64,000 bases of DNA from Anaerolineales bacterium (GCA_034434515.1 DAOTZA010000043.1:1999-65998); one strand, 5' to 3'. Positions 13,660-37,703 are shown, numbered from the stretch's first letter. Translations and numbers: made by a program. Notes: generated by a model from the sequence alone, not told the origin.

Positions 13660-13671
13660 CCATGATTTTTC

Positions 13672-15033: not shown

Positions 15034-15059
15034 AATCAATCTCCTTTCTAAAATTTTGG

Positions 15060-16774: not shown

Positions 16775-18247
16775 TTAGAACTTTCGCGTCCATTCTTTTG
16801 GCCAGCGCTCGATGACCACTTTCTTTTGGGTAAAGAATTCAACGGCATCCATACTTTGCCCATGCAGATCTCCAAAGAAACTTTCTTTCCACCCACTAAA
16901 GGGGAAGTAAGCCATCGGCGCTGCAACACCAATGTTGATACCCACATTGCCTGCCTGGACATGATAGCGGAATTTTCGCGCAGCTTCTCCGCTTTTCGTA
17001 AACAAACAAGCCATGTTGCCATAGTCCCCTAAATTGACCAAATCAATGGCTTCCTCGATGGTATTGACCGGCATGACGCTGAGGACAGGGCCAAAAATCT
17101 CGGTGCGGAACAATTCGCCTTGCGGAGGGATGTTCAGGATGACGGTTGGCTTGACAAAATTGCCCTTCTCATAGCCTTTGATCACAGCCCCCCGACCATC
17201 CACCAGAATCGTCGCGTCTTCCTCTTCCGCCTTACCAATCAATCCTTCGATGCGCGCCTTGCTTTGCGGCGTGATGACCGGCCCCATCTCTACTCCTTCA
17301 TCCAAGCCATACCCTACCACGCGACTGCGGGCGATCTCACAGATTGCCTCGATGAAATCACGCTTCACTTCACCAACCGGCGCGACAATCGAGGTCGCTA
17401 AGCAACGTTGCCCGGCGCTGCCAAAGGCGCTATCTGCCAGCACTTTCGTTGCTGTCTCCAGATCAGCATCCGGCAAGACAACCGAGATATTTTTTGCGCC
17501 ACCCTGACACTGAGCCCGTTTTCCATTGGCAGCTGCTCGCGAGTAGATATAACGCGCCACAGGCGTTGAGCCGACCATGCTGATTGCCCGGATCAAGGGG
17601 TGATCCAGAATGGCATCCACCGTCTCTTTTGCGCCATTTACCAGATTAATCACTCCCTTGGGAAATCCACATTGCTCCATGAGAGCAAAGATTTTTTGCA
17701 TTGTCAAGGGCACCTTTTCCGATGGCTTGACAATAACGGTGTTTCCACAAGCCAATGCATAGGGCATGAACCAGAAGGGGATCATGCCAGGGAAGTTAAA
17801 CGGACAGATAATTGCCACGACTCCCACCGGCTGGCGAATAAAATATTCATCAATGCCCGGCGCAATATCTTCTGAGAAAGCCCCCTGCAGTAAAGAAGGG
17901 ATACCACTGGCAACTTCCACGTTCTCAACCGCACGGCGCATCTCACCCCGCGCTTCGATAATCGTCTTCCCACACTCCATGGTAATCTGGCGCGAAAGCT
18001 CCTCAAAATGCGCTTCCAGCAAGTTTTTTAACTTAAAGAGACATTGAATCCGATCCCCTGCCGGCGTCTCTCTCCAAACCTTTAACGCCCTTTGGGCAGC
18101 CTGAGCAGCTTCATCCACCTCTTGGGGTGGCGACAAGGGCACTTCCCCTAATTTTTCTGCCGTAGCCGGGTTATAAACTCCCCATACTTCAGTCGCTTTT
18201 GACACTCTCCATTCACCATCAATGTAGTTACGCACTTGGACGACCAT
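16775..18247 (-). CDS. mmsA: CoA-acylating methylmalonate/malonate-semialdehyde dehydrogenase
   Basis: ATG at 18247 after AAGGAG. ALDH fold with catalytic Cys (GQRCLA) and the MMSDH-type C-terminus ([25 protein letters not shown]...FFTQKKVV). Confidence 0.8.
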
Positions 18248-18272
18248 TGCCAAACTCCTTCAGGTTTACGCA

Positions 18273-19598: not shown

Positions 19599-19626
19599 AG
19601 TACCTCCGTAAGTGTTTATAACTGAT

Positions 19627-20925: not shown

Positions 20926-20950
20926 AGGATTCCCTCCAAGGTAAAATATT

Positions 20951-21436
20951 TTAGGTTATTGATTCGCTCTTTTCACAGACCTCTAAAGGGATTGACCACT
21001 GATAAACATCTTTCAATACGGATGGAACAATTGAAGTAACCGTCTTTCGAACACCGGGTGTCTTACCAATGACTTGGGTGACAAAACGATAAACCTCCTC
21101 ATTACTTCGCGCAATCAATTGCACGCTGACATCTGTTTCCCCAATCGCATAAGCCACATAACTCACGCAACTGTATTCTGTCATCTTGTGGGCAACTTCT
21201 TCAATGCAGTCCGACTCCACCTCCAGCATCACATCCGCAACAACTCCGTATCCCAGGCTCTTTGGATTGACAACCGCCCTGATTCGGATAATATCTCTTT
21301 CGATTAATTTTTCCAAGCGATAACGAGCAGATCGCTCGGAAATACCCAGCCTGCGAGCAATCTCACTACAGGTTAATCGCCCATCCTCAATTAACAAATC
21401 AACAATTTTTTTATCAGTAATGTCGATTTTATACAT
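20951..21436 (-). CDS. Lrp/AsnC-family transcriptional regulator
   Basis: MYKIDITDKKIVDLLIEDGRLTCSEIARRLGISERSARYRLEKL (HTH) plus a C-terminal RAM-like domain. It is the first gene of the co-directional cluster. The start at 21436 was chosen by family N-terminus; no SD is visible. Confidence 0.8.
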   Translation of the reverse strand: MYKIDITDKKIVDLLIEDGRLTCSEIARRLGISERSARYRLEKLIERDIIRIRAVVNPKSLGYGVVADVMLEVESDCIEEVAHKMTEYSCVSYVAYAIGETDVSVQLIARSNEEVYRFVTQVIGKTPGVRKTVTSIVPSVLKDVYQWSIPLEVCEKSESIT

Positions 21437-21461
21437 GAATTTGGAAAATATTGTAGGTTTA

Positions 21462-21511
21462 TGACAAATATCATAATGCTTAAAACACAAAATTTCAAGT
21501 GACAAATGTCA
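21462..21511 (-). promoter_or_regulatory. Candidate sigma70-type promoter bracketed by two copies of a 12-bp palindrome (candidate Lrp-type operator)
   Basis: On the minus strand: -35 TTGAAA (21493-21498), 17-nt spacer, -10 TATGAT (21470-21475). Palindromes are TGACAAATGTCA (21500-21511, perfect) and TGACAAATATCA (21462-21473, one mismatch), with centres 38 bp apart. Confidence 0.4.
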
Positions 21512-22600: not shown

Positions 22601-24160
22601 CTATCTTCCCAAATCCCGAAATACATCCACCATTGACTCAAGTAAATCTGTGGCTAAAACACAGCGAGTTGTTCCCAACTTTTCCGCTGCTCGCAATCCT
22701 GCCTGAGCATGGAGCCACACGCCAGCAACGGCAGCCTCAAAGCCATTCATGCCCTGCGCTCTCAGCCCACCAATTAGACCGGCTAACACATCTCCACTCC
22801 CGGCGCGAGCCAGTGCTGAGGTAGCAACCGGATTAATCGCGGTGCGACCATCAGGATCGGCAATTACCGTGAAAGCACCTTTCAAGACAACAATTTGCCC
22901 CCATTGATTGGCAAATTTTTCCGCAACTTGAACGCGATCCGATTGAATATCAGCAACACGTAGACCAGTCAAGACGCTCATTTCGCCTGGATGTGGGGTT
23001 AATACGGTTTGAGGCGGGATTTTTTGATACCAACGTTCGTATCTGGTAAGCAATTTTAAGCCATCAGCATCGACTACGAGCGGTGGAATTCTGTCGCGAC
23101 CAAAATCTAGTATTCTTTTAACTAATCCAGACGTGCTCTCATGGTAACCAAAGCCAGGTCCCAAAACGAGGGCATCAATTGAATTCAGGCGTCCTGACAA
23201 AATTTGATCTCCTGCTGCCGAGAGATAACCCTGTTGCTCTGGCAGGATCAACCAGGTGGCTTCGGGGATTTGACCGGCTAGAGCTTGATAGACTGACCGC
23301 ACAACTCCCAAAGTTACCAATCCACAACCGCCCAAATAGGCTGCTTTCGCAGCCAAGTAGGCTGCACCGGTAAAGTCTTCACTTCCGGCTAAGATCAACG
23401 TCGTCCCAAACGTGCCTTTGTGAGAATTATCAGACCGCATGGGTAGCATCTCACGCACCCACTCAGCATCAATAACCCTCCGCCGAATATCGCTCCAGGT
23501 TGGAAATCTATCCGATAAACCAATATCCGCAACCAAAATCCGTCCACAGAATGCATAAGCGGGAAATTTTAATAGTCCAGCTTTGACCGCTGCCATTGTA
23601 ACGGTGATTTCTGCTGGAATTACTTCTTCAGCCACTTCACCGCTATCACAATCCACTCCGGATGGACAATCAACGGCGATAACATGGACAGGCGTATGCT
23701 TGACAAACTCTTTGACAATCCTCAATACCCTACCTATTGATTCTTTCAATGGCAACTCAAAGCCGGTCCCCAACACACCATCCAATAGGACTTCACTTTG
23801 CTGCAAAACAATCTGTAACTGTTGAAAATCCTTATCCTCCTGGATGGAGATCAAAATTCCATTTCGACTCAATAACCTTTGAACGAGTGGATCATCCACC
23901 GACCTTTCCTTTACCAGATAAGCAATCACTTTCCAGCCTTGTTCGGCCAGATAAGTCAAAGCGACCAAAGTATCCCCGCCATTATTTCCAGAGCCTACTA
24001 AGCCCATTGCAGTCCGATTAGTCCGACTGCGAAGTTCTTGATCAATGATGCGTCCCAAATTTGTCCCTGCATTTTCCATCATTTGGGCATAGGTTAGCCC
24101 CAACCGATCAGCCTCTTGCTCAACAGCGCGCATCTCAGAGACACTCACATACTTCATCAT
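22601..24160 (-). CDS. nnr: Bifunctional NAD(P)H-hydrate repair enzyme (epimerase / ADP-dependent dehydratase, YjeF family)
   Basis: N-terminal YjeF_N (GLVGSGNNGGDTLVA) and C-terminal carbohydrate-kinase-like domain (HKGTFGTTLILAGS..., GSGDVLAGLIGG). Its ATG overlaps the AOR3 stop (ATGA). Confidence 0.85.
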   Translation of the reverse strand: MMKYVSVSEMRAVEQEADRLGLTYAQMMENAGTNLGRIIDQELRSRTNRTAMGLVGSGNNGGDTLVALTYLAEQGWKVIAYLVKERSVDDPLVQRLLSRNGILISIQEDKDFQQLQIVLQQSEVLLDGVLGTGFELPLKESIGRVLRIVKEFVKHTPVHVIAVDCPSGVDCDSGEVAEEVIPAEITVTMAAVKAGLLKFPAYAFCGRILVADIGLSDRFPTWSDIRRRVIDAEWVREMLPMRSDNSHKGTFGTTLILAGSEDFTGAAYLAAKAAYLGGCGLVTLGVVRSVYQALAGQIPEATWLILPEQQGYLSAAGDQILSGRLNSIDALVLGPGFGYHESTSGLVKRILDFGRDRIPPLVVDADGLKLLTRYERWYQKIPPQTVLTPHPGEMSVLTGLRVADIQSDRVQVAEKFANQWGQIVVLKGAFTVIADPDGRTAINPVATSALARAGSGDVLAGLIGGLRAQGMNGFEAAVAGVWLHAQAGLRAAEKLGTTRCVLATDLLESMVDVFRDLGR

Positions 24161-26001
24161 AGCTTGCTTGCCTCCGTCTTATCCCAAAGATCAGGAAGAA
24201 GCCACTCTAAGTCAAGTTGACGTAACTTTTTAGGCAACGGTTTACCTGACCGTATATCCCACTCTCTGGCGCGATAATACGCCTCACGCATTTCATCGAA
24301 AGGCACAATAAAACTTTTAAGTTCACCCTGACCATCTTCATAAGGTTGTCGAAAGGCTTTGGGTAATCTCTCGGAAGCAGGGTCAAGGCAAAGACGGAGA
24401 TTAATGGCCCGCTTCAAATTCCAACCTCTCTCCCCAATTCGCATTAAATCTGGCAGATCGAGCTCGTAACCAGCGGCGGCGTTGATCAACGCTACAATAT
24501 CCTGCGGCGGTACATTGGCAAAGATACACATTACTAGGCTGTTAAATACCGTGCGCCAGTCCTGATGCAGACAAACATTTCTGGCTTTCTCCGCCCCACC
24601 AAGCCGAGGATGGGTCTCTAATCCAATGCTCGCCTCCACTTGTCCGATTTCAACAAAAAAGTAATCAGATTGATTATGACTAGCGCCAATTGGAGATGTG
24701 GCATAGACCAGAGCCATCCCTGAAGCCCCTCTGGGATCATGATAGGCAACTTCTAACCCATTGACCTGCACCGCCTCATCGGGGACTTGAAAAACCTCAG
24801 CCAAGCGCTTACTACCAAGAGCCAATAATTCTCCGAACCCCTCTCGAGGCGGGATTTTTGCGATCAACTGCATGACAATATCACTATCTCCCCACCTTAG
24901 CTCTAAACCATCCGTATCCGTGGTTTTAATGATCCCTTGTTCATATAAATTAAATGCCAGGCCTATGGTGTTGCTGGTGCTGATTGTGTCCAATCCTAAT
25001 CGATCGCAGATTTCACCCAGTTCAGTGATGGCAATCGGATCTGAGATCAGCAAATTTGGCCCAAAGCCAACAATCGTCTCATATTCTGGCCCTTTCTTTT
25101 TGGGTAAGCTATCGTACTGGACCACCCGGCCACAGGCAATCACACAGGCATGACAGGCACTTACCCCCTTGAGCAGATTTTCGGCAAAATACGATCCGGA
25201 GATATTCGGCACACCTTCAAAGACACTTTGGTGAAAATATCGTTTCGGCATCAAACCCAAATAATCGAAGTATTCGGCTGCGCCTGCTGTGCCAAGTTCC
25301 CGCAATACCAGAGATTGGTTATCGATGCGCAACCCCCGATTCGCCTCAGCCCGGAAGGGATCATAGACTTCTGGGATAGAAACAGGAATGGTTTTTGTAC
25401 CCCGCACGGCAATGGCTTTCAGATTCTTAGCCCCCATAACTGCCCCTAACCCGGTTCTGCCAGCAACCCGACCGTGATCGGTTAAGATCAAGGAATAGGG
25501 GATACCTGCTTCACCTGCAGGTCCAATAACAGCTACCCGGAAACCCTTTTCCCCAATTTCCAGTAAAACCCCCTGTTGCGTTGTATAAGTATCCGCCCCC
25601 CATAACTTGCGTGCATCGAATATCTTCACTTTCCCATCATCAATAACCAAAAACTGAGGGAAAGGCGCCTTACCCCGAATCATGAGCCCATCAAACCCTG
25701 CTTTCCGCAATTCCGTTCCCCAAAATCCTCCACAGTTTGACTCTGCCCAAAGTTGCGTTGCCGGCGATTTTCCACAGACGACAAACCTACCAACTGCCGG
25801 CCCCGCAGTTCCACTAAGAGGCCCAACCATGAACAACAAGGGAGCTTCTGGTGACAAGGGATCTAAATCACGCCTTAACTCCTCATATAAAATGCGGGCA
25901 CCTAAAGAGGCGCCTCCCAGATATTGAAATTGCCATTGGACAGGAATTTCGAATGAGCCACATTCCCCAGTTGTAAGGTTGACTTCTAAGAGCGGTTGCA
26001 T
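24157..26001 (-). CDS. Aldehyde:ferredoxin oxidoreductase family protein (AOR paralogue 3, 614 aa)
   Basis: [4Fe-4S] motif CHACVIAC, pterin motif LGLDTISTS and distal Cys LVMCIFAN. The N-terminal AOR domain is present. Confidence 0.85.
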   Translation of the reverse strand: MQPLLEVNLTTGECGSFEIPVQWQFQYLGGASLGARILYEELRRDLDPLSPEAPLLFMVGPLSGTAGPAVGRFVVCGKSPATQLWAESNCGGFWGTELRKAGFDGLMIRGKAPFPQFLVIDDGKVKIFDARKLWGADTYTTQQGVLLEIGEKGFRVAVIGPAGEAGIPYSLILTDHGRVAGRTGLGAVMGAKNLKAIAVRGTKTIPVSIPEVYDPFRAEANRGLRIDNQSLVLRELGTAGAAEYFDYLGLMPKRYFHQSVFEGVPNISGSYFAENLLKGVSACHACVIACGRVVQYDSLPKKKGPEYETIVGFGPNLLISDPIAITELGEICDRLGLDTISTSNTIGLAFNLYEQGIIKTTDTDGLELRWGDSDIVMQLIAKIPPREGFGELLALGSKRLAEVFQVPDEAVQVNGLEVAYHDPRGASGMALVYATSPIGASHNQSDYFFVEIGQVEASIGLETHPRLGGAEKARNVCLHQDWRTVFNSLVMCIFANVPPQDIVALINAAAGYELDLPDLMRIGERGWNLKRAINLRLCLDPASERLPKAFRQPYEDGQGELKSFIVPFDEMREAYYRAREWDIRSGKPLPKKLRQLDLEWLLPDLWDKTEASKL

Positions 26002-26198
26002 GGTGAAATCCTTTGCATTGATTGAAAGTTTGACGACCTAACAAAATTGTACGGTAGAAAAAAAGCATTTTTTAGTAAGATTATTATACCGTTTACGTTG
26101 GTTTGCCAATCGCCAATTTGTCTCATCTGGCATGTTTCTAGCAACGAGGAAAAGCAATGACAGCTCGGATTATAGCAAAGAGTCATTTCACAGCATTC

Positions 26199-26227
26199 TT
26201 GACACCCCTTCCAAGAATGACTATAAT
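26199..26227 (+). promoter_or_regulatory. Consensus sigma70 promoter for tRNA-Gly
   Basis: TTGACA (26199-26204), 17-nt spacer, TATAAT (26222-26227). It ends 15 nt before the tRNA 5' end. Confidence 0.6.
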
Positions 26228-26242
26228 ATTTGCAACTTGTAA

Positions 26243-26314
26243 GCGGGTGTCGCCAAGCGGTAAGGCAGCAGCTTCCCAAGCTGCCATTCGTGGGTTCGAA
26301 TCCCATCACCCGCT
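26243..26314 (+). tRNA. tRNA-Gly (anticodon CCC)
   Basis: 72-nt cloverleaf folded by hand: acceptor GCGGGTG/CACCCGC, anticodon stem GCAGC/GCTGC with loop TTCCCAA, T-arm GTGGG-TTCGAAT-CCCAT, discriminator U. CCA is not encoded. Confidence 0.9.
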
Positions 26315-26381
26315 CTTTTTATTTTAGATTAAGGAGAAATTTACAGGATTTTTATGACATTTAATGTAAAGTAAGACTGAT

Positions 26382-26771
26382 ATGGAAACGCTACAGAACC
26401 CTCTTATCCTTTATGTAGAAGATAATCTCGATAACCGCATTCTGGTTAGACGCATTTTGGAGGCAGAAGGCTTTCAGGTTGAAGAAGCATCCTCTGGACC
26501 TGAAGCTTTCGAAAAACTAAAAACAATAACACCAGACCTGATCCTGATGGATATCAACTTACCTGAAATCGATGGCTACACATTAACTTCCACTCTAAAA
26601 TCGCAATTCTCTACAAGCATCCCCATCGTTGCCTTGACCGCCAATGTTATGAAAGGCGATCGGGAAAAGACCTTACAAGCTGGCTGTGACGGGTATATAC
26701 AAAAACCGATTGATGTTGATGCCCTTCCCAGTCAGGTGCGCTCCTTCTTAAGCTCTAAAACAAAAGGATAA
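26382..26771 (+). CDS. Single-domain response regulator (CheY-like receiver)
   Basis: ILYVEDN..., phospho-acceptor context LILMDINLP, ALTAN, and K in IQKPI. Confidence 0.85.
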   Translation: METLQNPLILYVEDNLDNRILVRRILEAEGFQVEEASSGPEAFEKLKTITPDLILMDINLPEIDGYTLTSTLKSQFSTSIPIVALTANVMKGDREKTLQAGCDGYIQKPIDVDALPSQVRSFLSSKTKG

Positions 26772-26773
26772 AT

Positions 26774-27208
26774 ATGGCCGGAGCTTTCACCCAAAAAGAT
26801 TCCCACAGTATTGAATTGCAAGATATTACCGTTTTAGTTGTCGAAGACAATGTTTCCAATTTTGTCTTGATAGCCCGGTTACTCGGTTACTTAGGGATCC
26901 ATTGCGAATGGAAAACCTCTGGCTATGAGGTTGTTGAGTATGCCGATTTACTCCCAAAATTGGATTTAATTCTAATGGATATTCGTTTGCCTTATGAAGA
27001 TGGTTATGAGGCTCTCAAGAAAATCCGATCGTCACCTAAGCTCGCCTCTATTCCTGTGATAGCAATAACTGCAGAAGCATCGATGGAACAGATGCAAAAA
27101 GCCCATGCCGCTGGTTTTGATGGCTTCATTGGCAAACCAATTAATCCAGATCGCTTTCCAGAACAGATTCAACAAATCCTGAACGGAGACCCCGTCTGGG
27201 AGCTTTAG
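26774..27208 (+). CDS. Single-domain response regulator (CheY-like receiver), second copy
   Basis: VLVVEDN..., LILMDIRLP, AITAE, IGKPI. It starts 2 nt after the previous stop. Confidence 0.85.
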   Translation: MAGAFTQKDSHSIELQDITVLVVEDNVSNFVLIARLLGYLGIHCEWKTSGYEVVEYADLLPKLDLILMDIRLPYEDGYEALKKIRSSPKLASIPVIAITAEASMEQMQKAHAAGFDGFIGKPINPDRFPEQIQQILNGDPVWEL

Positions 27209-27233
27209 GATTTTTATAGGGAAAGAAAAGAAC

Positions 27234-27947
27234 ATGAATCCACCAAATGACATCATCGAAAATCCAAATATCTTCGACCAGAGTGAGCCTGACTACCTAG
27301 GGCTCTCTGAAGCACGCTCGGAAGAACAAAGTTACTTTCTTAACGATGCGTTGATCTTAATCGAGAGCTTCTTTCGAACGATATCGGGGATTCGGGATAT
27401 TCGATCTTATATCACGATATTTCGCAGCGAAGAGTCTCAAATTTTTCAACTGAAAGACCAGAAGCTACTCGCTACCCCGCCTACACCGCTGATGAATTAC
27501 CTAATCACAGAGATGATGAAAAGCGGTTCTACGTTGCTGTTCACCGACAATTCTCCAAAATCAGCCGAAAACATCGGCAAACCAAGTGGCTCATCCTGGT
27601 TGATTGCGCCTTTGATGAGAGAACACCAGATTATCGGCGCCATTATCGTCCAGGGTCCTAGAAATGGCCCCTATTTTTCCGAGAGTGATAAGCAAATATT
27701 GGCGTCTCTTACCGAACCAATCTCAAATCTTTTCCAAAATGTCCTTAACCTTCAATCTACCCGTAGAGCTCTCGACATACAATATGAAGCAGTTAACGCT
27801 ATTGCAAGAATTCAAGAAGATCTGGCGAAATTGACCGATAAACTCCTCGAAACCCTTGATGTCGATTTGGTACTTCAAACCAGTGTGATCGAGCTACGAG
27901 ATTTGTTTGACCTTGCAGAAGTTGAGATTCGATTGGTTACCGATTAA
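27234..27947 (+). CDS. GAF-like domain protein (function unknown)
   Basis: WLIAPLMREHQIIGAIIVQGP...FSESDKQILASLTEPISNLFQN resembles the C-terminal half of a GAF domain. Confidence 0.5.
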   Translation: MNPPNDIIENPNIFDQSEPDYLGLSEARSEEQSYFLNDALILIESFFRTISGIRDIRSYITIFRSEESQIFQLKDQKLLATPPTPLMNYLITEMMKSGSTLLFTDNSPKSAENIGKPSGSSWLIAPLMREHQIIGAIIVQGPRNGPYFSESDKQILASLTEPISNLFQNVLNLQSTRRALDIQYEAVNAIARIQEDLAKLTDKLLETLDVDLVLQTSVIELRDLFDLAEVEIRLVTD

Positions 27948-27983
27948 TTCTGGGATGCAATTGCTATAAAGAGGAAAAGGGCC

Positions 27984-30443
27984 ATGAAATTCTTCCCCTC
28001 ACTTCAGAAAGTTTCCATCCATACCCGGGTAATCGGGATGTTAACCCTGCTATCCCTTCTGGCAGTTTCTGGAACAGTTTTAAGCGCTCTTTATACGACT
28101 CAAGAGATCGGTAATAGCACCCAAAATTTGAGTGGTGAGATTATCAAAGAGCAAATCACCAGCTCTTTGGTTTCTCTGAATCAAAATGTTGCCATAGATA
28201 CCAGCCGATCTCTGGAAAAGACCGCTAACGATGTTGAATTTCTTGCTCAATACATCCTTGAGATCTGGACCAAACCAGAACAAGAGGTAATGAATTGGGC
28301 TAACGAAGAAATCATCAGAAAAGGCTTATCTGGACAATACTTAAATAGCAAAAGCAACGATTCCAGCCTTTTTGTTCCCAAATACGTTCAACTGACGCCT
28401 GTAATTAAGAATGAAATAGAAAAAAGCCGATATTTAGACTTAATTTTCGAATCGGTTCAAAAAGGGAATCCAAACATTGCCGCCATTTATTTTGCTTCCC
28501 CAAATAATGTAACCAGATATTATCCAAATATCGATCTTGGCAATGTTGTCCCCCCAGACTTTACCGTAACCGAACGCCCTTGGTATCTCGCCGCCATTGA
28601 AAATTCAACCCCTCGCCCCAAGGTTGTTTGGTCTACAATTTATGTAGATGCTACCGGTCTTGGTTTGGTCAGCACCGCCTCCCGTGCCATTTATGATCAT
28701 GGAAAATTGATCGGTGTGGTTGGGATCGATTTACTCGTTGAGGACATCCTTGCCAATGTAGAGGAATCCTTTCAATTGAAAGCAGGATACAACTTTTTAA
28801 TTGACTATCAAGGCTATGCGCTTGCTATGCCTCGCCAGGCATATCTCGATATTCTTGAACGCCAACCCGCAGAAGGCGAATCATTAACTAATCTTAGAGA
28901 CACACGGAACGATTTTCTTCCCATAATTGTCGAAATGCGCCGCGGCAATAGCGGTCTAAAAGAACTCAATATTGGATCGAGGAATTTATTTGTTGCCTAT
29001 ACCTCAGTCCCCAATGTTGATTGGAGTATAGCCAGCGTCGTAGATGCCGCCAGTTATCTCCAGCCCCTTTCTGAACTGGAAAATAAGCTCCAATCTAACA
29101 CCCAACGTTTAATTATTGTGCAAATTCTCCCCTTATCAGCAGCCGTTTTAGTTGTCATTATCTTCCTGGGATTAATTCTTGCTAACGTTATTACAACCCC
29201 AATCCAGCAACTTGCCACCGCTGCTGAAAAACTCAGCCGGAGTGAGTGGGAGGTTGAAATCCCTGAAGACGCCCCGGGAGAAATCGGCTTGTTTGCCCAA
29301 ACCTTCCGCAACATGGCAAATCAACTGAGAGATATCATTGCCAACCTGGAAGAAAAGGTTGCTGAGCGAACTGAAGCTTTACGTAGGAGAGCTATCCAGT
29401 TACAGGCTTCGGTTGAAGTTGGTCGTGCCGTTGCCTCCGAACGAGAGCTGGAAAAATTGCTCTCAATGGTTACCCATTTGATTAGTGAGCGCTTTGGTTT
29501 TTATCATGTTGGTATTTTTCTTGTTGACCCCAAAGGGGAGTACGCCTGGCTAAAGGCTGCTAATAGCGAAGGGGGACAGCGAATGTTGCAACGTCAACAT
29601 CGCTTGAAAGTGAACGAACAGGGAATTGTGGGGTATGTTACCGGAACTGGAAAAGCCCGCATCGCCTTAGATGTTGGCGAAGACGCAGTATTTTTCAATA
29701 ACCCAGACCTTCCCTTCACGCGTTCTGAAATGGCACTTCCCTTGATTGCCCAAGGAAAACTTCTCGGGGCTTTGGACATCCAGAGTGAACAAGGCGGAGC
29801 ATTCACCGAGGAGGATATCGAAGTACTCAGCGGTATGGCAAACCTGATTGCTATTGCCATCCAAAACGCAGAGCTGTTTGCAGAAACCCAGGCAGCTCTC
29901 GAAGCGACTCGCCGGGCTTATCAAGAAATGAGTTTACGGGGTTGGATCGAATTGATCAACCGCTCCCAACATCCAGCCTACCTCAGCACACCCTTGAAAA
30001 AACTGACCCCCTTAACCCACTTATCCGCTCCTATAATAGAAAAAGTCCGTCAAACCAACTCCATTCAAAAGGGAGACGATCATGAATTAGCAATCCCAAT
30101 TATGGTTAAAGGCAATCGGATTGGAGTTCTCCGTCTACGTCGGCAAGCTCACCAACCCCCCTTTACCGATACCGATATTGATTTGTTCCAGGATATTGCC
30201 CTGCGGATTGGAACCGCTCTGGAAGCAGCTCGTCTCTATCAAGAATCACAAAAAAGAGCGTTGCGCGAAAAACTGGTCGGCGAAATCACTTCAAAGATTC
30301 GCTCCTCGAATGAACCGAAAGAGATTCTCAAGATAGCCATTGAAGAATTGCAAAAAGCTCTTCAGGCCACCAAGGCGCAAGTGGCTTTCTTCTCATCGAA
30401 ATCAGCTCTAAGTGATAACGGACACCGTGAGGGATTAGAATGA
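27984..30443 (+). CDS. Membrane sensor: TM - periplasmic Cache-like domain - TM - HAMP - GAF - GAF, with no recognisable transmitter/output domain
   Basis: N-terminal TM (VIGMLTLLSLLAVSGTVLSALY) and second TM (LPLSAAVLVVIIFLGLILANVI). HAMP (TTPIQQLATAAEKL...FAQTFRNMANQL). Two GAF-like blocks. No H-box, HATPase, GGDEF or other output motif seen. Confidence 0.7.
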   Translation: MKFFPSLQKVSIHTRVIGMLTLLSLLAVSGTVLSALYTTQEIGNSTQNLSGEIIKEQITSSLVSLNQNVAIDTSRSLEKTANDVEFLAQYILEIWTKPEQEVMNWANEEIIRKGLSGQYLNSKSNDSSLFVPKYVQLTPVIKNEIEKSRYLDLIFESVQKGNPNIAAIYFASPNNVTRYYPNIDLGNVVPPDFTVTERPWYLAAIENSTPRPKVVWSTIYVDATGLGLVSTASRAIYDHGKLIGVVGIDLLVEDILANVEESFQLKAGYNFLIDYQGYALAMPRQAYLDILERQPAEGESLTNLRDTRNDFLPIIVEMRRGNSGLKELNIGSRNLFVAYTSVPNVDWSIASVVDAASYLQPLSELENKLQSNTQRLIIVQILPLSAAVLVVIIFLGLILANVITTPIQQLATAAEKLSRSEWEVEIPEDAPGEIGLFAQTFRNMANQLRDIIANLEEKVAERTEALRRRAIQLQASVEVGRAVASERELEKLLSMVTHLISERFGFYHVGIFLVDPKGEYAWLKAANSEGGQRMLQRQHRLKVNEQGIVGYVTGTGKARIALDVGEDAVFFNNPDLPFTRSEMALPLIAQGKLLGALDIQSEQGGAFTEEDIEVLSGMANLIAIAIQNAELFAETQAALEATRRAYQEMSLRGWIELINRSQHPAYLSTPLKKLTPLTHLSAPIIEKVRQTNSIQKGDDHELAIPIMVKGNRIGVLRLRRQAHQPPFTDTDIDLFQDIALRIGTALEAARLYQESQKRALREKLVGEITSKIRSSNEPKEILKIAIEELQKALQATKAQVAFFSSKSALSDNGHREGLE

Positions 30444-31228
30444 GTTACGTGATAGCGATTGCAAATCAAAAAGGTGGAGTGGCAAAAACCACCACAGCCG
30501 TTGGATTGAGCGGAGCACTTGTCCAGGAAGGTTATGATGTTTTGGCAATTGATCTGGATGCACAAGCCAATCTCACCATAGCATTAGGCATAAATCCTCT
30601 TCAGGTGCGACGCTCGATTGCCGATATTTTTGTTAATGCTGAAAAGCTTGCTTCTGTCATCCAGGATACCAATCTGCCCGGTCTGGAGCTTGTCCCGGCC
30701 AATAAAGACATGGAACTATCTGAGCGCTTTGTCCCATTACGCCAAAATCATGAAATTCTCTTACGCCAACAATTATCCACACCCGAAATCTCATCTGTTT
30801 ATGATTTCATTGTTCTGGATTGTCCTCCGTACCTTGGAGCAATCACCACCAACGCCCTGGTGGCAGCGCAAATGCTCATCATCCCCACGCAAGCCGAGGT
30901 TTTTTCTCTGAACGCGCTGAAGAACATGATTGCCCAGGTCAAAACAATTCGCCAAACCTTCAATCCTGGCCTCACCTACCGCATCCTCATCACCCTCCGC
31001 GACCTCCGCAGTCGCATTCATCGCACTATGAGCGAACAGCTCTTCAATGCTTTTCCAAATGGCATTCTGAATACAACTATCGACTTAGACACCAAACTGC
31101 GAGAGAGCGCAATGGCGGGTATGCCGGTCACCTATTGTTACCCAAAGAGCCGAGGGGCACAGCAATATCGGTCACTTGCGATGGAGATCTTAGAATATGT
31201 GCGCCAAAAAAATCTCATCCCAGCTTGA
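30440..31228 (+). CDS. ParA/MinD-family P-loop ATPase
   Basis: Deviant Walker A IAIANQKGGVAKTTT, DLDAQANLT, and Walker B FIVLDCPP. ATGA overlap with the sensor gene stop. Confidence 0.85.
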   Translation: MSYVIAIANQKGGVAKTTTAVGLSGALVQEGYDVLAIDLDAQANLTIALGINPLQVRRSIADIFVNAEKLASVIQDTNLPGLELVPANKDMELSERFVPLRQNHEILLRQQLSTPEISSVYDFIVLDCPPYLGAITTNALVAAQMLIIPTQAEVFSLNALKNMIAQVKTIRQTFNPGLTYRILITLRDLRSRIHRTMSEQLFNAFPNGILNTTIDLDTKLRESAMAGMPVTYCYPKSRGAQQYRSLAMEILEYVRQKNLIPA

Positions 31229-33962
31229 AAATTTGCTTATTGAGCTAAATCAAGAGGCACTTCAAACCCAACCGGAGGGATCACCGAATCTACAACCGCA
31301 ATCTGCTCTGTCAAATATCTCCTTAGATACCGACAGAGCAGAGAAACTGCCTCTGACCGGTGATCTAATCAAAGGATACCCGGTACGTCACCCGGAGTCA
31401 TTTAGTCCCTCAGGCAGGGAGACGGTAATTGTTCAATCGAATGGCAGGATAAAAGCTGTCCCATTATCGGCCGGTGAGACGCCTCCATCTGAGTTGTTTC
31501 TTACCGATCTGGGACCGAAAGCCTACCAAACTCATCAATTACTTCTCCAAGATGCGCAAGACCATCAACCCGCTGTTCTGTCCCTGGCAAAACCGCTTGG
31601 CGAGCAAGCGTTTCTGGTTGAATTTATCAAAGACACATCTCAACCCAAGTGGGATCCCGATGAAATCCTTCTACTGGAACAGGTTACCGACCAGTTACAA
31701 CTTGCTCTTGAAAACGCCAACTTGTTCCAAAAAACAAAAGAGGCGTTGCAAGAGACCGAACAAAGAGCAAAAGAATTACGTATCCTGAATGAATTTGGAC
31801 TGTCGCTAACCAATGCTAATAATTTCGAGACAATCTATCAAACCGTCTTTGAGTGTGTCTCTCGCTTAATGAATGCTCACAATTTCTATGTTGCCATCTA
31901 CAACGAGCGAACCGAAAGCATTTCTTTTCCATTCGTTATCTTAGATGGAATTCCGCTGGATGAAACTCACCCAGAGGCAGGGTTTTGGATGGGAGAAATG
32001 CCCGTTGAAGGTTTGACCGGCCATGTAATTCAAACCAAACAACCGCTATTACTGACCGAAGGTGTTGAAAATCAATTGCGCCATTCAAACCTGAATTTTA
32101 TCCAAATCGGAGCAGTGGCTGCCAAATCCTGGTTGGGCGTCCCAATGCTCTATGGCGATAAGGTGATTGGCGTAATCTCCGTCCAGCATGAACAGATTCC
32201 CAACTTATATGACCAACATCATGTGGAGCTCTTAACCACCATTGGTAACCAGACGGCGATTGCTATCCAGAATGTTCAGTTCCTTCAAGAATTAAGTCAA
32301 CGGGCAGAACAATTGCAAACGGCTGCTGAAATCGCCCGCGATACTTCTGGTACGCTCGCGTTGGATCAATTACTAAACCGAGTCGTCAACCTGGTCAGAG
32401 ATCGCTTTGGTTTCTACCATTCTTCCATTTTCCTGATTGATGAAGATCGCCACTACGCTGTCGTGCGGGAGTCGACTGGCGAAGCCGGAGAGGCAATGAA
32501 ACGCGCGGGGCATAAGCTGGCAGTCGGATCACAATCGATCATCGGCTATGTGACTCAACATGGCGAACCTTTGGTCATTAACGATGTGTCGCAAAGCGAC
32601 ATCCATCGCCCCAATCCGCTTCTCCCTGAGACGAAATCCGAATTAGGCATTCCCTTGAAAATTGGCGACCAGGTGATTGGCGCTCTCGATGTGCAATCCA
32701 CACAAAAGAATGCCTTTTCAGCCGATGACGTCTCAGTCTTGCAATTGCTTGCCGATCAAATTGCGGTTGCCATCAGTAATGCTCAGGCTTACGAGCTCTC
32801 GCAGCAAGCAATTGAGGAAATGGCAAAAGCCGATCAATTAAAGAGCCAGTTCCTGGCGAATATGAGCCATGAGTTACGCACACCGCTCAATTCCATCATC
32901 GGCTTCTCAAGAGTGATCTTAAAGGGCATCGATGGCCCAATAACTGACTTGCAAAGACAAGACCTCAATGCAATCTACAACTCTGGACAGCACTTGCTCA
33001 GCCTCATCAATGACATTCTCGACTTGTCAAAAATCGAGGCCGGCAAGATGGAATTAATGTTTGAAGATGATGTCAATCTCAGCGAAATCATTCAAAGTGT
33101 TTTACCTACGGTGCGAGGGTTAATCAAAGATAAACCCATTGAGTTACACGTCAATCTAGACCCCAATGTTCCCCTGGTTCGCGCTGACCCGACAAAAATT
33201 CGTCAAATCTTGCTCAATTTGCTTTCGAATGCAGCCAAATTTACCGAACAAGGCTCAATTACGATTCAAACCCAAATCGAAAGAATCAATTCTCATGAAG
33301 AAGTCCAGATCAGTGTAACCGACACGGGTATAGGAATTGCTGAAGAAGACCAATCAAAGCTATTCGAACCTTTCTCGCAGGTCGATGCCTCACCGACTCG
33401 GAAAACCGGTGGTACCGGTCTGGGACTTTCAATCTCACGCTATCTGGTGGAGATGCATGGGGGTAAGATTGGCTTGAAGAGCGAATTAGGGAAAGGTTCG
33501 ACCTTTTATTTCACCATCCCCGTTCCAGGCTCCCACCAAGAGCCTTCTGAAGCGCCAAGCGCAACTCAAAACTCCATCCCATCCAATACGGTATTAGCCA
33601 TAGACCGGGAAGAGCTGGTTCTCAACCTGTACGAACGTTACCTGGCTGACTATGAACTTCGAGTTGTAAAATGCTCTTTACCCGAACAGGCTATCCAACT
33701 GGCAGAAACATTATCCCCTTCAGTGATCATCATCGACACAGCAATAGAGTTCAATTCTGACCCCACCAAGGATGGTTGGCATCTCATCCAGGAATTAAAA
33801 TCAAAGCCTACCACAGCAAAAATCCCGATTGTGATCTGTTCTCTAATTGAGGACCGGGAACGTGCCAGGCAGGTTGGGGTCAGTGAATATTTACTTAAGC
33901 CCATAATGGAAGATGATTTAACCTCAGCCCTAAAAAAGATCATCCAAGGTGTGAAAACATAG
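31197..33962 (+). CDS. Hybrid sensor histidine kinase (GAF-GAF-HisKA-HATPase_c-receiver-like)
   Basis: H-box FLANMSHELRTPLNSI, N-box LLNLLSNAAKFT, G-boxes DTGIGI and GGTGLGLSI. The C-terminal REC-like domain (VIIIDTAIE...) has a degenerate acidic pocket. The start may be the TTG at 31233 instead of the ATG at 31197, which overlaps parA by 32 nt. Confidence 0.8.
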   Translation: MCAKKISSQLENLLIELNQEALQTQPEGSPNLQPQSALSNISLDTDRAEKLPLTGDLIKGYPVRHPESFSPSGRETVIVQSNGRIKAVPLSAGETPPSELFLTDLGPKAYQTHQLLLQDAQDHQPAVLSLAKPLGEQAFLVEFIKDTSQPKWDPDEILLLEQVTDQLQLALENANLFQKTKEALQETEQRAKELRILNEFGLSLTNANNFETIYQTVFECVSRLMNAHNFYVAIYNERTESISFPFVILDGIPLDETHPEAGFWMGEMPVEGLTGHVIQTKQPLLLTEGVENQLRHSNLNFIQIGAVAAKSWLGVPMLYGDKVIGVISVQHEQIPNLYDQHHVELLTTIGNQTAIAIQNVQFLQELSQRAEQLQTAAEIARDTSGTLALDQLLNRVVNLVRDRFGFYHSSIFLIDEDRHYAVVRESTGEAGEAMKRAGHKLAVGSQSIIGYVTQHGEPLVINDVSQSDIHRPNPLLPETKSELGIPLKIGDQVIGALDVQSTQKNAFSADDVSVLQLLADQIAVAISNAQAYELSQQAIEEMAKADQLKSQFLANMSHELRTPLNSIIGFSRVILKGIDGPITDLQRQDLNAIYNSGQHLLSLINDILDLSKIEAGKMELMFEDDVNLSEIIQSVLPTVRGLIKDKPIELHVNLDPNVPLVRADPTKIRQILLNLLSNAAKFTEQGSITIQTQIERINSHEEVQISVTDTGIGIAEEDQSKLFEPFSQVDASPTRKTGGTGLGLSISRYLVEMHGGKIGLKSELGKGSTFYFTIPVPGSHQEPSEAPSATQNSIPSNTVLAIDREELVLNLYERYLADYELRVVKCSLPEQAIQLAETLSPSVIIIDTAIEFNSDPTKDGWHLIQELKSKPTTAKIPIVICSLIEDRERARQVGVSEYLLKPIMEDDLTSALKKIIQGVKT

Positions 33963-35651
33963 ATGTCTCAAACCAACTTCTTCGTTCAATGCCTGGATTG
34001 TGAAAACACAGAACCCTTTCGGGTTAATCAAACAGCTTGCTCCCATTGTGGGAGCAACTGGCGTGAAGTACACTACGACCTTGCAGAGGTAAAAGAGATT
34101 TTCGAAAAATCTTTACCCGAACGCCCCTTTAATTTGTGGCGGTATCGCGAGTTATTACCTGTTACCGAATATCTTCCCTATCTATCCATGGGGGAGGGCG
34201 GTACCCCACTCATTCACGCCAATAACCTCGGAATGATGCTTGGCTGTCCTACTTTATTTGTCAAAGATGAACGTCAAGGTCCTACGAACTCATTTAAAGA
34301 CCGTCAAGCAGCAGTAGCCATTGCGGCAATGAAGGAAGCGTCCGTCACTGAAGCGGTTTTAGCCTCAACCGGCAATGTAGCCATTGCTTACTCTGCCTAT
34401 GCCGCCAGAGCCGGAATTAAGTTGTGGGCTTTTCTAACCAGCCTTGTCCCTCTGGAAAAAATGCGCGAAGTAGCTATTTACGGTACAAAGGTCATTAAGG
34501 TTACAGGCACTTACGATGAAGCCAAGCGACTAGCAGCAGAGTTTGCGCGCCAACGCCACCTTCACCTCGAACGCGGGGCTTGCTCGATCCCTTCAGTCGA
34601 ATCGATGAAAACCCTAGCTTTTGAAATCGCTGAGCAATTGACCTATTCTCTGAGCTCGGTTTCCTCTACCCAGTCTGTTATAGCGACAAAATGGAAAGCA
34701 CCCGACTGGTACGTGCAATCCGTCAGTGGCGGAATAGGTCCATTGGGTGTCCTGAAAGGATTTACAGAATTGTATCAAATGGGATTGATCGATCGAATCC
34801 CTTCAATCGCCTGTATCCAAGCAGAGGGATGCGCTCCGATGGTAAAAGCTTGGAAAGCCAATAAAGCCGTTGCCGATCCAATCCTGAATCCCCAAACACA
34901 TATTACTACCCTCTCAACCGGCGACCCTGGTCGCACGTATACCCTGCTCCGAGAGAGAATATTAGAATCCGGAGGAGGGGCATTTGAAAGTGTCAGTGAC
35001 GAAGAAACCTTTCGCACCATTCATATCCTTGCTAAACTCGAGGGTCTATCTACTGAATCGGCTGCTGCAGTCGCTTTTGCTGGGGCGATAAAGCTATTTC
35101 GACAAGGCATCATCAAACCCAACGAAATTGTGGTCATAAACTGCACCGGCCACACAATGCCGGTTGAAAACCTCATTTTGGGTGATGGTTGGGCAACCGA
35201 CATTTCTGTTTCCAGAGTTGAGATGGAAACCAAACCTCAAGAAGGCCTCTATGGGGCATTAAGCAACCTGACCCCAGAAAAGGTGCGAAAAATTGTCATT
35301 ATCGATGACATCGAAGACGCTCGCCGTCTACTGCGAAGGATTTTACAATCTCAAGGCGACTTTATCATTCGTGAAGCGGAAAATGGCATTAAAGGCATTC
35401 AATTGATTAAAGAAGACCCGCCAGACGTAATTATCTTAGATTTAATGATGCCCGAAGTAGATGGTTTTGCCGTCCTGAATCAGCTCCAGGAATACCCTGA
35501 TTTGGCGTCCATTCCTGTCATTGTGGTCACAGCCAAAGAATTGACGAAAGAGGAAACCCTGTTGCTGAAAGGGAAAGTAAAAGCCTTAATGCATAAGGGA
35601 AAATTTATGAGCGACGATCTGGCCGATGAAATATTAGAAGCCATTCATTGA
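33963..35651 (+). CDS. Threonine-synthase-like fold-type-II PLP enzyme fused to a C-terminal response-regulator receiver domain
   Basis: N-terminal Zn-ribbon CLDCEN...CSHCGS. PLP-lysine motif PTNSFKDRQAA and a threonine-synthase-like core. C-terminal canonical REC (VIIDDIED..., VIILDLMMPEVDG, VVTAKE). Its ATG directly abuts the kinase stop codon. Confidence 0.75.
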   Translation: MSQTNFFVQCLDCENTEPFRVNQTACSHCGSNWREVHYDLAEVKEIFEKSLPERPFNLWRYRELLPVTEYLPYLSMGEGGTPLIHANNLGMMLGCPTLFVKDERQGPTNSFKDRQAAVAIAAMKEASVTEAVLASTGNVAIAYSAYAARAGIKLWAFLTSLVPLEKMREVAIYGTKVIKVTGTYDEAKRLAAEFARQRHLHLERGACSIPSVESMKTLAFEIAEQLTYSLSSVSSTQSVIATKWKAPDWYVQSVSGGIGPLGVLKGFTELYQMGLIDRIPSIACIQAEGCAPMVKAWKANKAVADPILNPQTHITTLSTGDPGRTYTLLRERILESGGGAFESVSDEETFRTIHILAKLEGLSTESAAAVAFAGAIKLFRQGIIKPNEIVVINCTGHTMPVENLILGDGWATDISVSRVEMETKPQEGLYGALSNLTPEKVRKIVIIDDIEDARRLLRRILQSQGDFIIREAENGIKGIQLIKEDPPDVIILDLMMPEVDGFAVLNQLQEYPDLASIPVIVVTAKELTKEETLLLKGKVKALMHKGKFMSDDLADEILEAIH

Positions 35652-35664
35652 CCTCTCGAAAGCA

Positions 35665-36666
35665 ATGCTTGAAAAAACTGCTGCGCCGTTAAAAATCCAG
35701 ACCTATACCCTGTCGGTTCGCGGCGTTTTTCCAGCAGTTTTATCGGCAATCCTCCTTGGCTTCGCCCCCATTTTTGGCAAACTTGCCATTCAAAATGGCG
35801 TTTCCCCTTTGTTCGTTGTAACGGTCCGGACGGTTCTGGCAACTTTGTTTATGGCTATCACATTGCTGTTTACGAACCGGCTCAACTTTTATATCTACCC
35901 TGCGGGTTTAATGGCATGTGCATTGGCGGGAACATTGAATGGAATCGGTTCACTTTTTTATTATCTGGCTTTATCGATGATCAACGCCAACCTGGGACAA
36001 TTGATCTTCTTAACTTATCCGGTCTTTGTCACCCTATGGATGGTTTTTGATCACTATAAACCATCATCGGTTTCCCTGCTAAGACTTGCACTCATCGTCC
36101 TTGGGATTGTTTTGTTAATTTACGGGATACATACCCCTGTACGTCTTAGAGGCATCCTTTTTATGTTGATTGCCGCAGCTTGCTATGGATTGCATCTGCC
36201 TATCAACCAACGTGTCCTTTATGAAATGCCAGCTCCCACAGTAACTTTCTATACCTTGCTCTTCATGTCACTTGCTGTTATACCATCCAGCTTATTGATT
36301 CCTCAGCCACTGCAATTATCCCCTGAAAAATCACTTGAACTTCTACCGTTCTTTCCGGTACTGGCTTTAGCTCTGGTTACTTTTCTTTCGAGATTAACCC
36401 TTTTTTTGGGCGTAAAGCGGATTGGTGGACTTCAAACGGCTTTGCTGGGAGTGACGGAACTCTTGGTAACGCTGACTCTGGCAAAGGTATGGCTATACGA
36501 AACTTTCAACTTCCTTCAATGGGTTGGCGCACTGTTGATCCTGTTAAGCCTTCTGCTAATTGGTCTCGAAAAGCCTCCTCAACGGCAAGCAGCAAAACCC
36601 ACTCTTCTTCACTGGTTACAACACTTGCCATCTAAAGAGCCTCCTAACCCTCCGCTAATCGACTAG
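35665..36666 (+). CDS. EamA/DMT-superfamily transporter (10 TM)
   Basis: Two EamA-like halves, hydrophobic throughout. It starts 13 nt after the previous gene. Confidence 0.75.
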
Positions 36667-36785
36667 CCTTTGCAAGGCTAACTGAACACTGCATTCCATT
36701 TTGGCTTAACCAATCTGATTCGGCAAACAAGACGCTGCCTTGTGTTATACTACTCCTAAACCTATCTAATCCTTGGGAGTCTGCT

Positions 36786-37703
36786 ATGAAACATTTTCTT
36801 GATGTCCTGGATTATTCTTCAGAAGATTTGCAAGCGATGTTAGATTTGGCAATAAAACTCAAAAAACAATGGAAAGCAGGTGGAAATCCACCCTTGCTCA
36901 GAGGGAAAGTCCTGGGAATGATCTTTCAAAAGCCTAGCCTGCGCACACGGGTTTCTTTTGATATGGCTATGCGACATTTAGGCGGGGATGCGTTGTATCT
37001 TTCACCAGCAGAAATCGGCCTAGGCAAACGAGAAGCCATCAGCGACGTAGCCCGAGTCTTATCCGGTTATGTAGACGCTATTATGGCGCGGGTGTTTGAA
37101 CACGAACACGTTCTCGAACTGGCTCGTTGGGCAAGTGTTCCGGTGATCAATGGCCTAAGCGACTACAATCATCCCTGCCAGGCAATGGCAGATGCCTTGA
37201 CGATTTACGAAAAATTTGGCAAGCTAAAAGGAATTCAAGTAACCTTCGTCGGTGATGGAAACAATGTGGCAGTCTCTTTGATGCACGTTTGCGTAAAACT
37301 CGGCGCGAACTTCACCATCGCTAATCCAGAAGGTTATGATATGCCCACGCAAGCTGTCGAACTTGCTAAAGAGGTCGCCCGCAAAACCGGCAGTCAACTA
37401 AATTTCTTGCGCGACCCTCATCAAGCTGTCAAAGGCGCCCAGGTAATCTATACCGATACCTGGACCAGCATGGGACAAGAAGAAGAAGCTCAAATTCGAG
37501 AGAAAGTATTCCCCCCATATCAGGTCAACCCACAATTGGTCTCTGAAGCCGACAAAGATGTCATCGTCATGCACTGTTTGCCTGCCCATCGTGGGCAAGA
37601 GATCACGGACGAAGTCGCCGATGGACCGCATTCTGCTCTCTTCCCTCAGGCTCACAATCGACTTCATGCTCAAAAAGCAATTCTGGTTAAGTTGCTAACT
37701 TAG
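36786..37703 (+). CDS. argF: Ornithine carbamoyltransferase
   Basis: Carbamoyl-phosphate motif [10 protein letters not shown], plus [17 protein letters not shown] and [10 protein letters not shown]. 305 aa. Confidence 0.8.

Follow-up and report, generated by a model that had tools for sequence, protein, structure and literature searches.

Layout of the operon

We analysed 64,000 nucleotides (nt) of DNA from an Anaerolineales bacterium (GCA_034434515.1, DAOTZA010000043.1:1999-65998; this whole stretch is called the window), in which eight plus-strand open reading frames (ORFs), here g1 to g8, fill positions 26382-36666. They encode two stand-alone receivers, a GAF-like protein, a membrane sensor, a ParA-type ATPase, a soluble hybrid histidine kinase, a threonine-synthase-like enzyme fused to a receiver (ThrC-REC) and an EamA permease. 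Gene coordinates were taken from ORF calls in the window and architectures from Pfam (E ≤ 0.01), and the proteins were also compared with NCBIfam curated models. The features are as follows.

26199-26227 (+), promoter-like sigma-70-type -35/-10 site, TTGACA-17-TATAAT, 12/12 consensus positions; a consensus match only
26243-26315 (+), tRNA-Gly(CCC), found by ARAGORN; Rfam tRNA 63.6 bits
26382-26771 (+), g1, stand-alone CheY-like receiver of 129 residues; Pfam REC 4e-29
26774-27208 (+), g2, stand-alone receiver of 144 residues; Pfam REC 1e-21
27234-27947 (+), g3, GAF-like protein of 237 residues; GAF_2 30.2 bits against a cut-off of 28.6, partial coverage
27984-30443 (+), g4, membrane sensor dCache_1-HAMP-GAF-GAF; Pfam
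28560-28730 (+), near-complete dCache amino-acid motif in g4; motif as defined in PMC8915833
30440-31228 (+), g5, ParA/Soj-type ATPase; AAA_31 4.9e-48
31197-33962 (+), g6, soluble hybrid kinase GAF-GAF-HisKA-HATPase_c-REC; Pfam
31197-31259 (+), basic N-terminal peptide of g6, MCAKKISSQLENLLIELNQEA, conserved in ParA-kinase pairs
33963-35651 (+), g7, Zn ribbon, ThrC-like PALP domain and REC; Pfam PALP 6.5e-58, REC 5e-19
35289-35648 (+), receiver of g7, residues 443-562; phospho-acceptor residues counted across the family
35665-36666 (+), g8, EamA/DMT-family permease of 333 residues; two EamA domains, 1.7e-29

Successive genes are separated by 2, 25, 36, -4, -32, 0 and 13 nt, so that the reading frames overlap between g4 and g5 and between g5 and g6, and g7 begins directly after g6. 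This layout had been proposed in a preliminary description made from the sequence alone; the ORF calls returned the same spacings, and the Pfam hidden Markov model scan returned the same architectures for all eight genes. The module counts also hold, with four receivers, one kinase core and five GAF domains, plus a degenerate sixth at the N-terminus of g6. As had been claimed, no DNA-binding domain was detected in the eight proteins. Pfam likewise found no MCP signalling domain, CheW or CheA among them, so that the locus does not qualify as a chemosensory array, and it detected no Hpt domain in them, nor was one seen in the annotated relatives. Because there is no Hpt domain, a strict His-Asp-His-Asp phosphorelay is unsupported, and the word phosphorelay, as used in the preliminary description, is better avoided. 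NCBIfam assigned no specific named equivalog to any of g1-g8.

Conservation across Anaerolineae

The source genome belongs to the Anaerolineales (Chloroflexota), and the nearest relatives of g7 come from metagenome-assembled genomes (MAGs) of the same order. The closest loci, with ThrC-REC proteins 87-96% identical to g7, are those of JANXBJ01 SKYB29 (L001/L081), QEXX01 Nak19 (L005) and a 1.38-Mb metagenome contig (L089). All eight genes occur in the window's order in L001/L081 and L089; L005 has the same order up to ThrC-REC, within which its contig stops, before EamA. Both flanks of the operon are kept in L001/L081, and the upstream flank alone in L089.

A scan of one genome per species yielded 80 Anaerolineae loci with a ThrC-REC gene (55-88% identity), including those of the cultured Ornatilinea apprima P3M-1 (L043) and of a Leptolinea MAG (L058). 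ORFs were called in the fetched loci and annotated with domain queries from the window. Where at least 3 kb of upstream sequence was available (69 loci), the gene directly before ThrC-REC, in the same orientation, encodes a histidine kinase in 65; EamA comes directly after ThrC-REC, again on the same strand, in 66/82. A REC-histidine kinase gene takes the place of EamA in 14/82 loci, five of which have an opposite-strand EamA gene just beyond. ParA is found upstream of the kinase in 38 of the 55 loci whose upstream sequence reaches 9 kb or more. Co-occurrence of ThrC-REC, GAF kinase, ParA and EamA across genomes, which the preliminary description had named as a check, is thus seen in most loci for the kinase and EamA and in 38/55 for ParA.

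Conservation of gene order had also been named beforehand as a test. Order is kept in the close relatives, and at 55-65% ThrC-REC identity the core order persists while the flanking genes change. Three such loci annotated with Pfam (L083, L084 and L085) encode dCache-HAMP-GAF, ParA, multi-GAF histidine kinase, PALP-REC and EamA in that order between differing flanks, which indicates more than residual synteny. The view that the genes form one conserved functional unit is supported by these comparisons of sequence. The class-wide arrangement is tRNA-Gly(CCC), REC, REC, GAF proteins, (dCache-)HAMP-GAF sensor, ParA, multi-GAF histidine kinase, ThrC-REC and EamA, and the operon in the window is a compact form of this larger locus.

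The front of the locus was followed in a metagenome scan seeded with g2, which recovered at least 479 stretches; 39 long loci were inspected. In 39/39, the genes that come after REC-REC, in the same orientation, encode GAF-only and (Cache-)HAMP-GAF proteins, and these occupy the 10 kb downstream of REC-REC wherever the contig extends so far. ParA is reached in two of the 39. One compact metagenome locus reads REC, REC, GAF-HK-REC2, PALP-REC, where HK denotes the histidine kinase core.

A more divergent arrangement is that of a PALP-REC-REC clade (52% identical), in which a single 2753-residue sensor-HAMP-GAF-PAS...HK protein is encoded directly upstream of the enzyme by a gene that overlaps the enzyme gene by 8 nt, and from which both ParA and EamA are absent. 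The fused protein beside PALP-REC-REC marks the multi-GAF kinase and the ThrC-like-REC protein as the invariant pair of the locus, and g4, g5 and g6 as a split version of such a kinase with ParA encoded between the parts. Separation of sensing (g4) and kinase (g6) on two polypeptides, already noted in the preliminary description, holds for the window.

Two further variants were seen. In one subclade, which includes Thermoflexales MAGs (L054, L060, L064-L068, L070-L073, L076, L078), REC-HK replaces EamA after ThrC-REC, the upstream GAF kinase has no receiver in most loci, and no ParA gene occurs within 10 kb. In eight other loci (L010, L013, L015, L023, L025, L034, L077, L083), EamA is followed immediately by a convergent, minus-strand second system that is absent from the window and consists of an OmpR-type regulator (~270 residues), a REC-(GAF)-HK protein and a GAF-GAF-HK protein. 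This second system could supply a transcriptional branch in distant relatives.

The ThrC-like receiver enzyme

The enzyme part of g7 carries an N-terminal Zn ribbon (C10, C13, C26, C29) that is retained in the family, and both the pyridoxal phosphate (PLP) lysine, K112 in SFKDR, and the STGN loop are invariant in 82/82 family members. An AlphaFold2 model of g7, with a mean pLDDT of 78.6, shows the fold of ThrC: the best Foldseek matches are threonine synthases (E ~1e-23, target-normalised TM 0.80-0.83), with the structure of the ThrC-like protein CapA2 (9k3c) at rank 16. Identity to the solved bacterial threonine synthases 2ZSJ, 2D1F, 1UIM and 6CGQ is 28-33%. Against the curated thrC models, g7 falls below every cut-off (NF006050, 248.1 vs 303; TIGR00260, 155.3 vs 167.1).

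We compared the residues of the 82 family sequences with five solved threonine synthases, using Thermus thermophilus numbering. G64Q, T88V, S155G, Q164M and N188G occur in 82/82 sequences, at positions that are identical in the four bacterial enzymes; G64, T88, S155 and Q164 are identical in the Arabidopsis enzyme as well. In place of R160 the family has S, A, T or C, and N154 has become R in 64/82. Five of these residues, T88, N154, S155, R160 and N188, which we take from work on 1V7C to line the phosphate site for the substrate, are thus not retained by the g7 family. Arginines gained at positions 154 and 157 might take over phosphate binding from the lost ligands, and archaeal-type ThrC-like proteins likewise lack R160. 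With scores below the cut-offs and a remodelled pocket, the identity of g7 as a threonine synthase is not established. The earlier label 'threonine-synthase-like' is apt for the fold and the PLP lysine and does not extend to the curated equivalog score or the pocket residues. Canonical ThrC queries found no second, non-fused copy in the window or in ~170 loci, a search confined to the neighbourhoods of these loci.

The receiver of g7 has the full set of phosphorylation residues, with D/E448 and D449 in 82/82 sequences, D493 in 82/82, T523 in 77/79 and K545 in 79/79. Residues 402-427, which link enzyme and receiver, and residues 539-554 are modelled with pLDDT <50, and the docking of the two domains cannot be read from the model.

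When 1.84 billion representative proteins were searched exhaustively, the ThrC-REC fusions stood sharply apart as a clade, the closest non-fused proteins being 42-54% identical. The contexts of these non-fused relatives are mixed: housekeeping genes (P0123, 54%), radical SAM/SPASM with TauE, and epimerase with methyltransferase. Deducing the substrate of g7 from such neighbours was considered and set aside, the contexts being too heterogeneous. One cluster of enzyme relatives, P0243, includes a member from the Nitrososphaerales. More distant are five Zn-ribbon ThrC-like proteins of ~610-627 residues (P0161, P0187, P0204, P0234, P0262); Pfam, run on P0161 alone, identified a LeuA allosteric (dimerisation) domain at its C-terminus, and P0187, P0204, P0234 and P0262 resemble P0161 in length and C-terminal sequence. 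Other ThrC-like fusions carry a C-terminal PadR domain (P0186) or an N-terminal FHA domain (P0207). Appended regulators thus recur in the Zn-ribbon ThrC-like group, and the LeuA, PadR and FHA fusions appear to be members of it that are controlled by feedback or by signals.

The ParA ATPase and the hybrid kinase

The ATPase g5 has the deviant Walker A sequence KGGVAKTT (residues 11-18; 30470-30493), which contains the signature lysine of ParA/MinD proteins, and its nearest solved structures are ParA/Soj (2e-38 to 1e-31). Pfam found no ParB-like gene among the eight. A 142-residue alternative-frame ORF inside the ParA gene, 30820-31248 (+), is probably spurious.

The kinase g6 is a histidine kinase by both of its core domains (HisKA 1.2e-21, HATPase_c 3.4e-31), with the H-box SHELRTPL and the phospho-acceptor H558; it has its own receiver (D847) and no transmembrane segment. 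Orthologous kinases range from ~750 to ~2900 residues and contain up to eleven GAF domains.

The start codon of g6 lies inside the ParA ORF, the first 32 nt of g6 overlapping g5. In 30 of 39 ParA-kinase pairs, the kinase starts 14-47 nt inside ParA, most commonly at 32-35 nt, and its first residues follow M-x-[KR]-[KR]-x-L-x-x-R-L-[ED]-x-L-F-x-[DE]-L, 2-6 of the first 12 being K/R; in most of the other pairs the kinase N-terminus is basic too, in a variant form. Conservation of both the overlap and the N-terminal peptide settles the start of g6 at 31197, so that of the two spacings offered previously, -32 and +4, the former is supported (30/39 relatives) over the latter. Partners of ParA/MinD ATPases share a basic N-terminal peptide, among them the cytoplasmic chemoreceptor TlpT, the partner of PpfA (PMC7993993). 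From the peptide we infer that the kinase g6 is a partner or cargo of the ParA protein. Since ParA is absent in some clades, it is accessory and not core. Nine kinases that follow ParA (L007, L012, L015, L024, L027, L034, L043, L062, L084) have the conserved motif G-W-x-W-E-C-D-x-x-G-x-[YF] some 30-45 residues past the basic peptide; the motif, carried by many kinases and absent from g6 of the window, is possibly PAS-like.

The sensor, the GAF protein and the stand-alone receivers

The membrane sensor g4 has its second transmembrane segment at residues 376-397 and no transmitter, and its stop codon overlaps the start of g5 by 4 nt. The periplasmic dCache domain contains F193-x4-R198-x-W200-Y201-x18-Y220-x28-D249, to be compared with the published amino-acid-binding motif Y121-x4-R126-x-W128-Y129-x(13-17)-Y144-x(27-34)-D173 (PMC8915833). 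Periplasmic domains in many other loci differ from that of g4, and the input layer of the locus is thus variable.

The small protein g3 is similar to the C-terminal portions of GAF proteins from L025, L077 and L097. In relatives, long GAF-only proteins stand at this position, and g3 corresponds to them in shortened form. The possibility that a GAF domain is split, with its beginning in the C-terminal tails of g3 and g4 and its end at the N-terminus of g6, as their sequences suggest, was tried and rejected, since Pfam found no junction-spanning GAF domain in the concatenated pieces.

The g1-g2 pair is present in 47 loci, and both sequences show the receiver phospho-acceptor set (acidic pair, Asp, Thr/Ser, Lys). 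In close relatives g1 is 84-86% identical. Two signature motifs mark g2, CEWKTSGYEVVE and PDRFPxQ...W; it shares 59-66% identity and 63 invariant positions with five aligned orthologues, and is 71-82% identical in the metagenome stretches. Between the window and L081, identity is 89% for g2, 87% for g7, 88% for AspRS, 89% for alanine dehydrogenase and 69-74% for the sensor and the kinase. Given that g2 and g7 evolve as slowly as core enzymes, and given the class-wide conservation, the locus is probably important physiologically.

Head of the locus, permease and surrounding genes

The promoter-like site ends 15 nt before the tRNA-Gly(CCC) gene. The tRNA gene, overlooked earlier, has the orientation of the operon, and 66 nt separate it from g1. 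A same-strand tRNA-Gly(CCC) gene occurs <400 nt upstream of REC-REC in 29 of the 43 loci with enough upstream sequence. The linkage could reflect co-transcription from the tRNA promoter or merely stable synteny. An Rfam scan of 25500-37500 for riboswitches or leaders gave the tRNA alone, and a scan of the operon for internal promoters and terminators gave weak consensus matches near the shuffled expectation. A 107-residue minus-strand ORF (25986-26309) that overlaps the tRNA and promoter region has no Pfam match and is probably spurious.

The permease g8 has the two EamA repeats and matches no substrate-specific family (TIGR00950, 50 vs 230). Neither hom nor thrB adjoins the locus in the window or in the annotated relatives. 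Upstream, on the other strand, lies a cluster of amino-acid and amine catabolism genes (4364-21505, -) that includes four class-III aminotransferases, an aldehyde dehydrogenase, a saccharopine dehydrogenase, a LarA-like protein, an Lrp/AsnC regulator, two Na+/solute symporters (one possibly split, at 15060-16688) and two aldehyde:ferredoxin oxidoreductases (AFORs), with a third AFOR at 24157-26001. Downstream of the operon are genes for OTCase, alanine dehydrogenase (AlaDH), acetyl-CoA hydrolase and pyruvate kinase. The last two are followed by a 780-residue protein with no Pfam match (41573-43915, +), which is conserved at this position in relatives, with 52% identity in L081 and 35% in L084.

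Interpretation and alternatives

We propose that the locus is a split two-component system of the class Anaerolineae whose cognate response regulator is a PLP enzyme coupled to a transporter, and judge the chance that this is correct to be about even. The architectures, the order of the genes and its conservation, the intact catalytic residues and the ThrC fold are direct observations, and the steps that follow are proposals. In such a system, g4 would sense an extracellular signal, in this genome probably an amino acid bound by dCache. Lacking a transmitter, g3 and g4 would have to act on the soluble kinase g6 through protein contact. ParA may take the basic peptide of g6 as its partner signal and position, partition or bridge kinase assemblies. 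The kinase would autophosphorylate at H558 and phosphorylate receivers itself, without an intervening Hpt, its chief target being D493 of g7. Phosphorylation of this receiver would switch the activity or the oligomeric state of the PLP domain, and EamA would carry the substrate or product of g7 over the membrane. The remaining receivers, g1, g2 and that of g6, may serve as sinks, connectors or a second output branch.

Several observations count against this proposal. Adjacency of the kinase and g7 genes (65/69) is not proof of phosphotransfer from g6 to g7, and it is gene order that suggests the PLP enzyme as output and EamA as exporter of what the enzyme makes. The receiver of g7 is C-terminal to its enzyme, the reverse of typical response regulators, and its alpha4-beta5 region is modelled at low confidence. 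ParA is missing from one subclade and from the PALP-REC-REC clade. The dCache domain of g4 matches five of the six positions of the amino-acid motif, with F for Y at the first and a spacer of 18, one over the range, and amino-acid-type dCache domains occur in the ~820-residue g4 orthologues of only 14/54 loci. Finally, g2 is conserved as strongly as g7 or more so, and CheY-like proteins could be the main output.

This last point leads to the arrangement in which g1 and g2 are the outputs, acting on conserved machinery, and ThrC-REC is either a sink for phosphate or an input, a 'trigger enzyme' through which the kinase learns of amino-acid or PLP status; it would then not be a regulated enzyme. 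It would explain why g2 is so well kept in at least 479 stretches (71-82%, with 63 invariant positions including its unusual motifs), marginally better than g7 between the window and L081 (89% vs 87%), and why REC-REC heads 39/39 long metagenome loci and several GTDB loci; several receivers per kinase with no Hpt is a typical sink or connector design. The kinase, however, adjoins ThrC-REC and not g1/g2 in 65/69 loci and is mostly 10-20 kb from REC-REC, catalysis is suggested by a PLP lysine, a Zn ribbon and a large part of the pocket that are invariant in g7, and the EamA linkage (66/82) is hard to square with a pure sink. We regard this arrangement as doubtful, though a serious candidate. A simpler possibility is that g7 is a housekeeping threonine synthase and g8 an exporter like RhtA, the threonine/homoserine exporter of Escherichia coli and a member of the EamA/DMT family, so that the cluster tunes threonine supply to external amino acids with no novel metabolite involved. 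Here the best family matches of g7 (NF006050, 248 bits) and its fold, the invariant SFKDR and STGN, the core-enzyme rate of evolution, the housekeeping context of the non-fused clade member P0123 (54%), the LeuA-type domain of sister proteins, which fits a feedback-regulated biosynthetic enzyme, and a neighbourhood rich in amino-acid catabolism genes are all as expected. We nevertheless consider it unlikely: g7 scores under each thrC cut-off (248 vs 303; 155 vs 167), carries G64Q, T88V, S155G, Q164M and N188G in 82/82 sequences and has lost R160, other non-fused relatives sit in clusters resembling those of specialised metabolism, and no hom or thrB gene adjoins the locus.

It would be very surprising if the eight genes were neighbours through inherited synteny with no joint function. 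The flanking AFOR, OTCase, AlaDH and acetyl-CoA hydrolase genes are also syntenic in the closest relatives, but at 55-65% identity the flanks vary while the core order is kept; two of the gene junctions overlap and a third has no gap, and the ParA-kinase overlap is conserved together with the peptide it encodes. At the other extreme, the genes might form a self-contained amino-acid signalling circuit, in which g7 makes a non-proteinogenic or diagnostic amino acid, EamA exports it, the dCache domain of g4 detects it outside the cell and the GAF kinase feeds back, with ParA partitioning the kinase among the cells of a filament. We think this improbable; if true, it would be a quorum- or neighbour-sensing loop built on a response-regulator enzyme.

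Should receiver phosphorylation control the PLP domain, as our preferred reading of a split two-component system has it, g7 would be a response regulator with an amino-acid-metabolising enzyme as output, and two-component signalling would be wired straight to metabolism and transport, bypassing transcription. If g6 is indeed a partner of ParA, a histidine kinase would join the proteins that ParA-type ATPases carry or bind. The carriers are filamentous bacteria of a class that has been little studied, although it is abundant in digesters, sediments and hot springs, and the cultured carrier O. apprima P3M-1 makes these questions testable.

Comparison with known systems

All parts of the locus come from known families. 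Their combination, ThrC-REC as invariant partner of giant GAF kinases, with an interlocked ParA gene, EamA and tRNA-Gly(CCC) at the head, was not met in the literature searched; there we found no description of a ThrC/PALP-receiver fusion, of ParA with GAF kinases or of an Anaerolinea threonine synthase, in keeping with the earlier remark that the architecture was not recognisable as a described system.

Among the nearest parallels are the enzymatic response regulators, such as the methylesterase CheB, the diguanylate cyclases PleD and WspR, and RpfG, in which an intact receiver is likewise fused to an enzyme, beside a histidine kinase and with a post-translational logic. In g7, the enzyme is instead a fold-type II PLP protein of the ThrC family, and the receiver is C-terminal rather than N-terminal. 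Bacterial threonine synthases share the fold, SFKDR and STGN with g7, which differs by its Zn ribbon and receiver and, across its family, by substitutions at G64, T88, N154, S155, R160, Q164 and N188. Regulated fold-type II PLP enzymes include plant threonine synthase with its S-adenosylmethionine-binding extension, IlvA with C-terminal regulatory domains and cystathionine beta-synthase with a Bateman module. These too combine a PALP domain with an appended regulatory domain, whereas g7 would be controlled by aspartate phosphorylation from a sensor kinase and not by metabolite binding.

A ParA-family ATPase inside a signalling locus is also seen in PpfA-TlpT of Rhodobacter sphaeroides and ParC of Vibrio, although the cargo here would be a multi-GAF histidine kinase in a putative partner role. 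The CqsA/CqsS quorum-sensing system has the gene of a PLP-dependent autoinducer synthase beside that of a hybrid sensor kinase, as here, and by analogy a self-made molecule might be sensed outside the cell. The likeness is one of analogy only: the PLP fold type differs, the enzyme of our locus carries a receiver, and an exporter and ParA are present. With dCache_1AA sensors such as PctA, finally, g4 shares R-x-W-Y...Y...D in an extracytoplasmic dCache_1 domain followed by HAMP (PMC8915833), and it differs in the initial F, the spacer of 18 against 13-17, and a GAF-GAF module with no transmitter.

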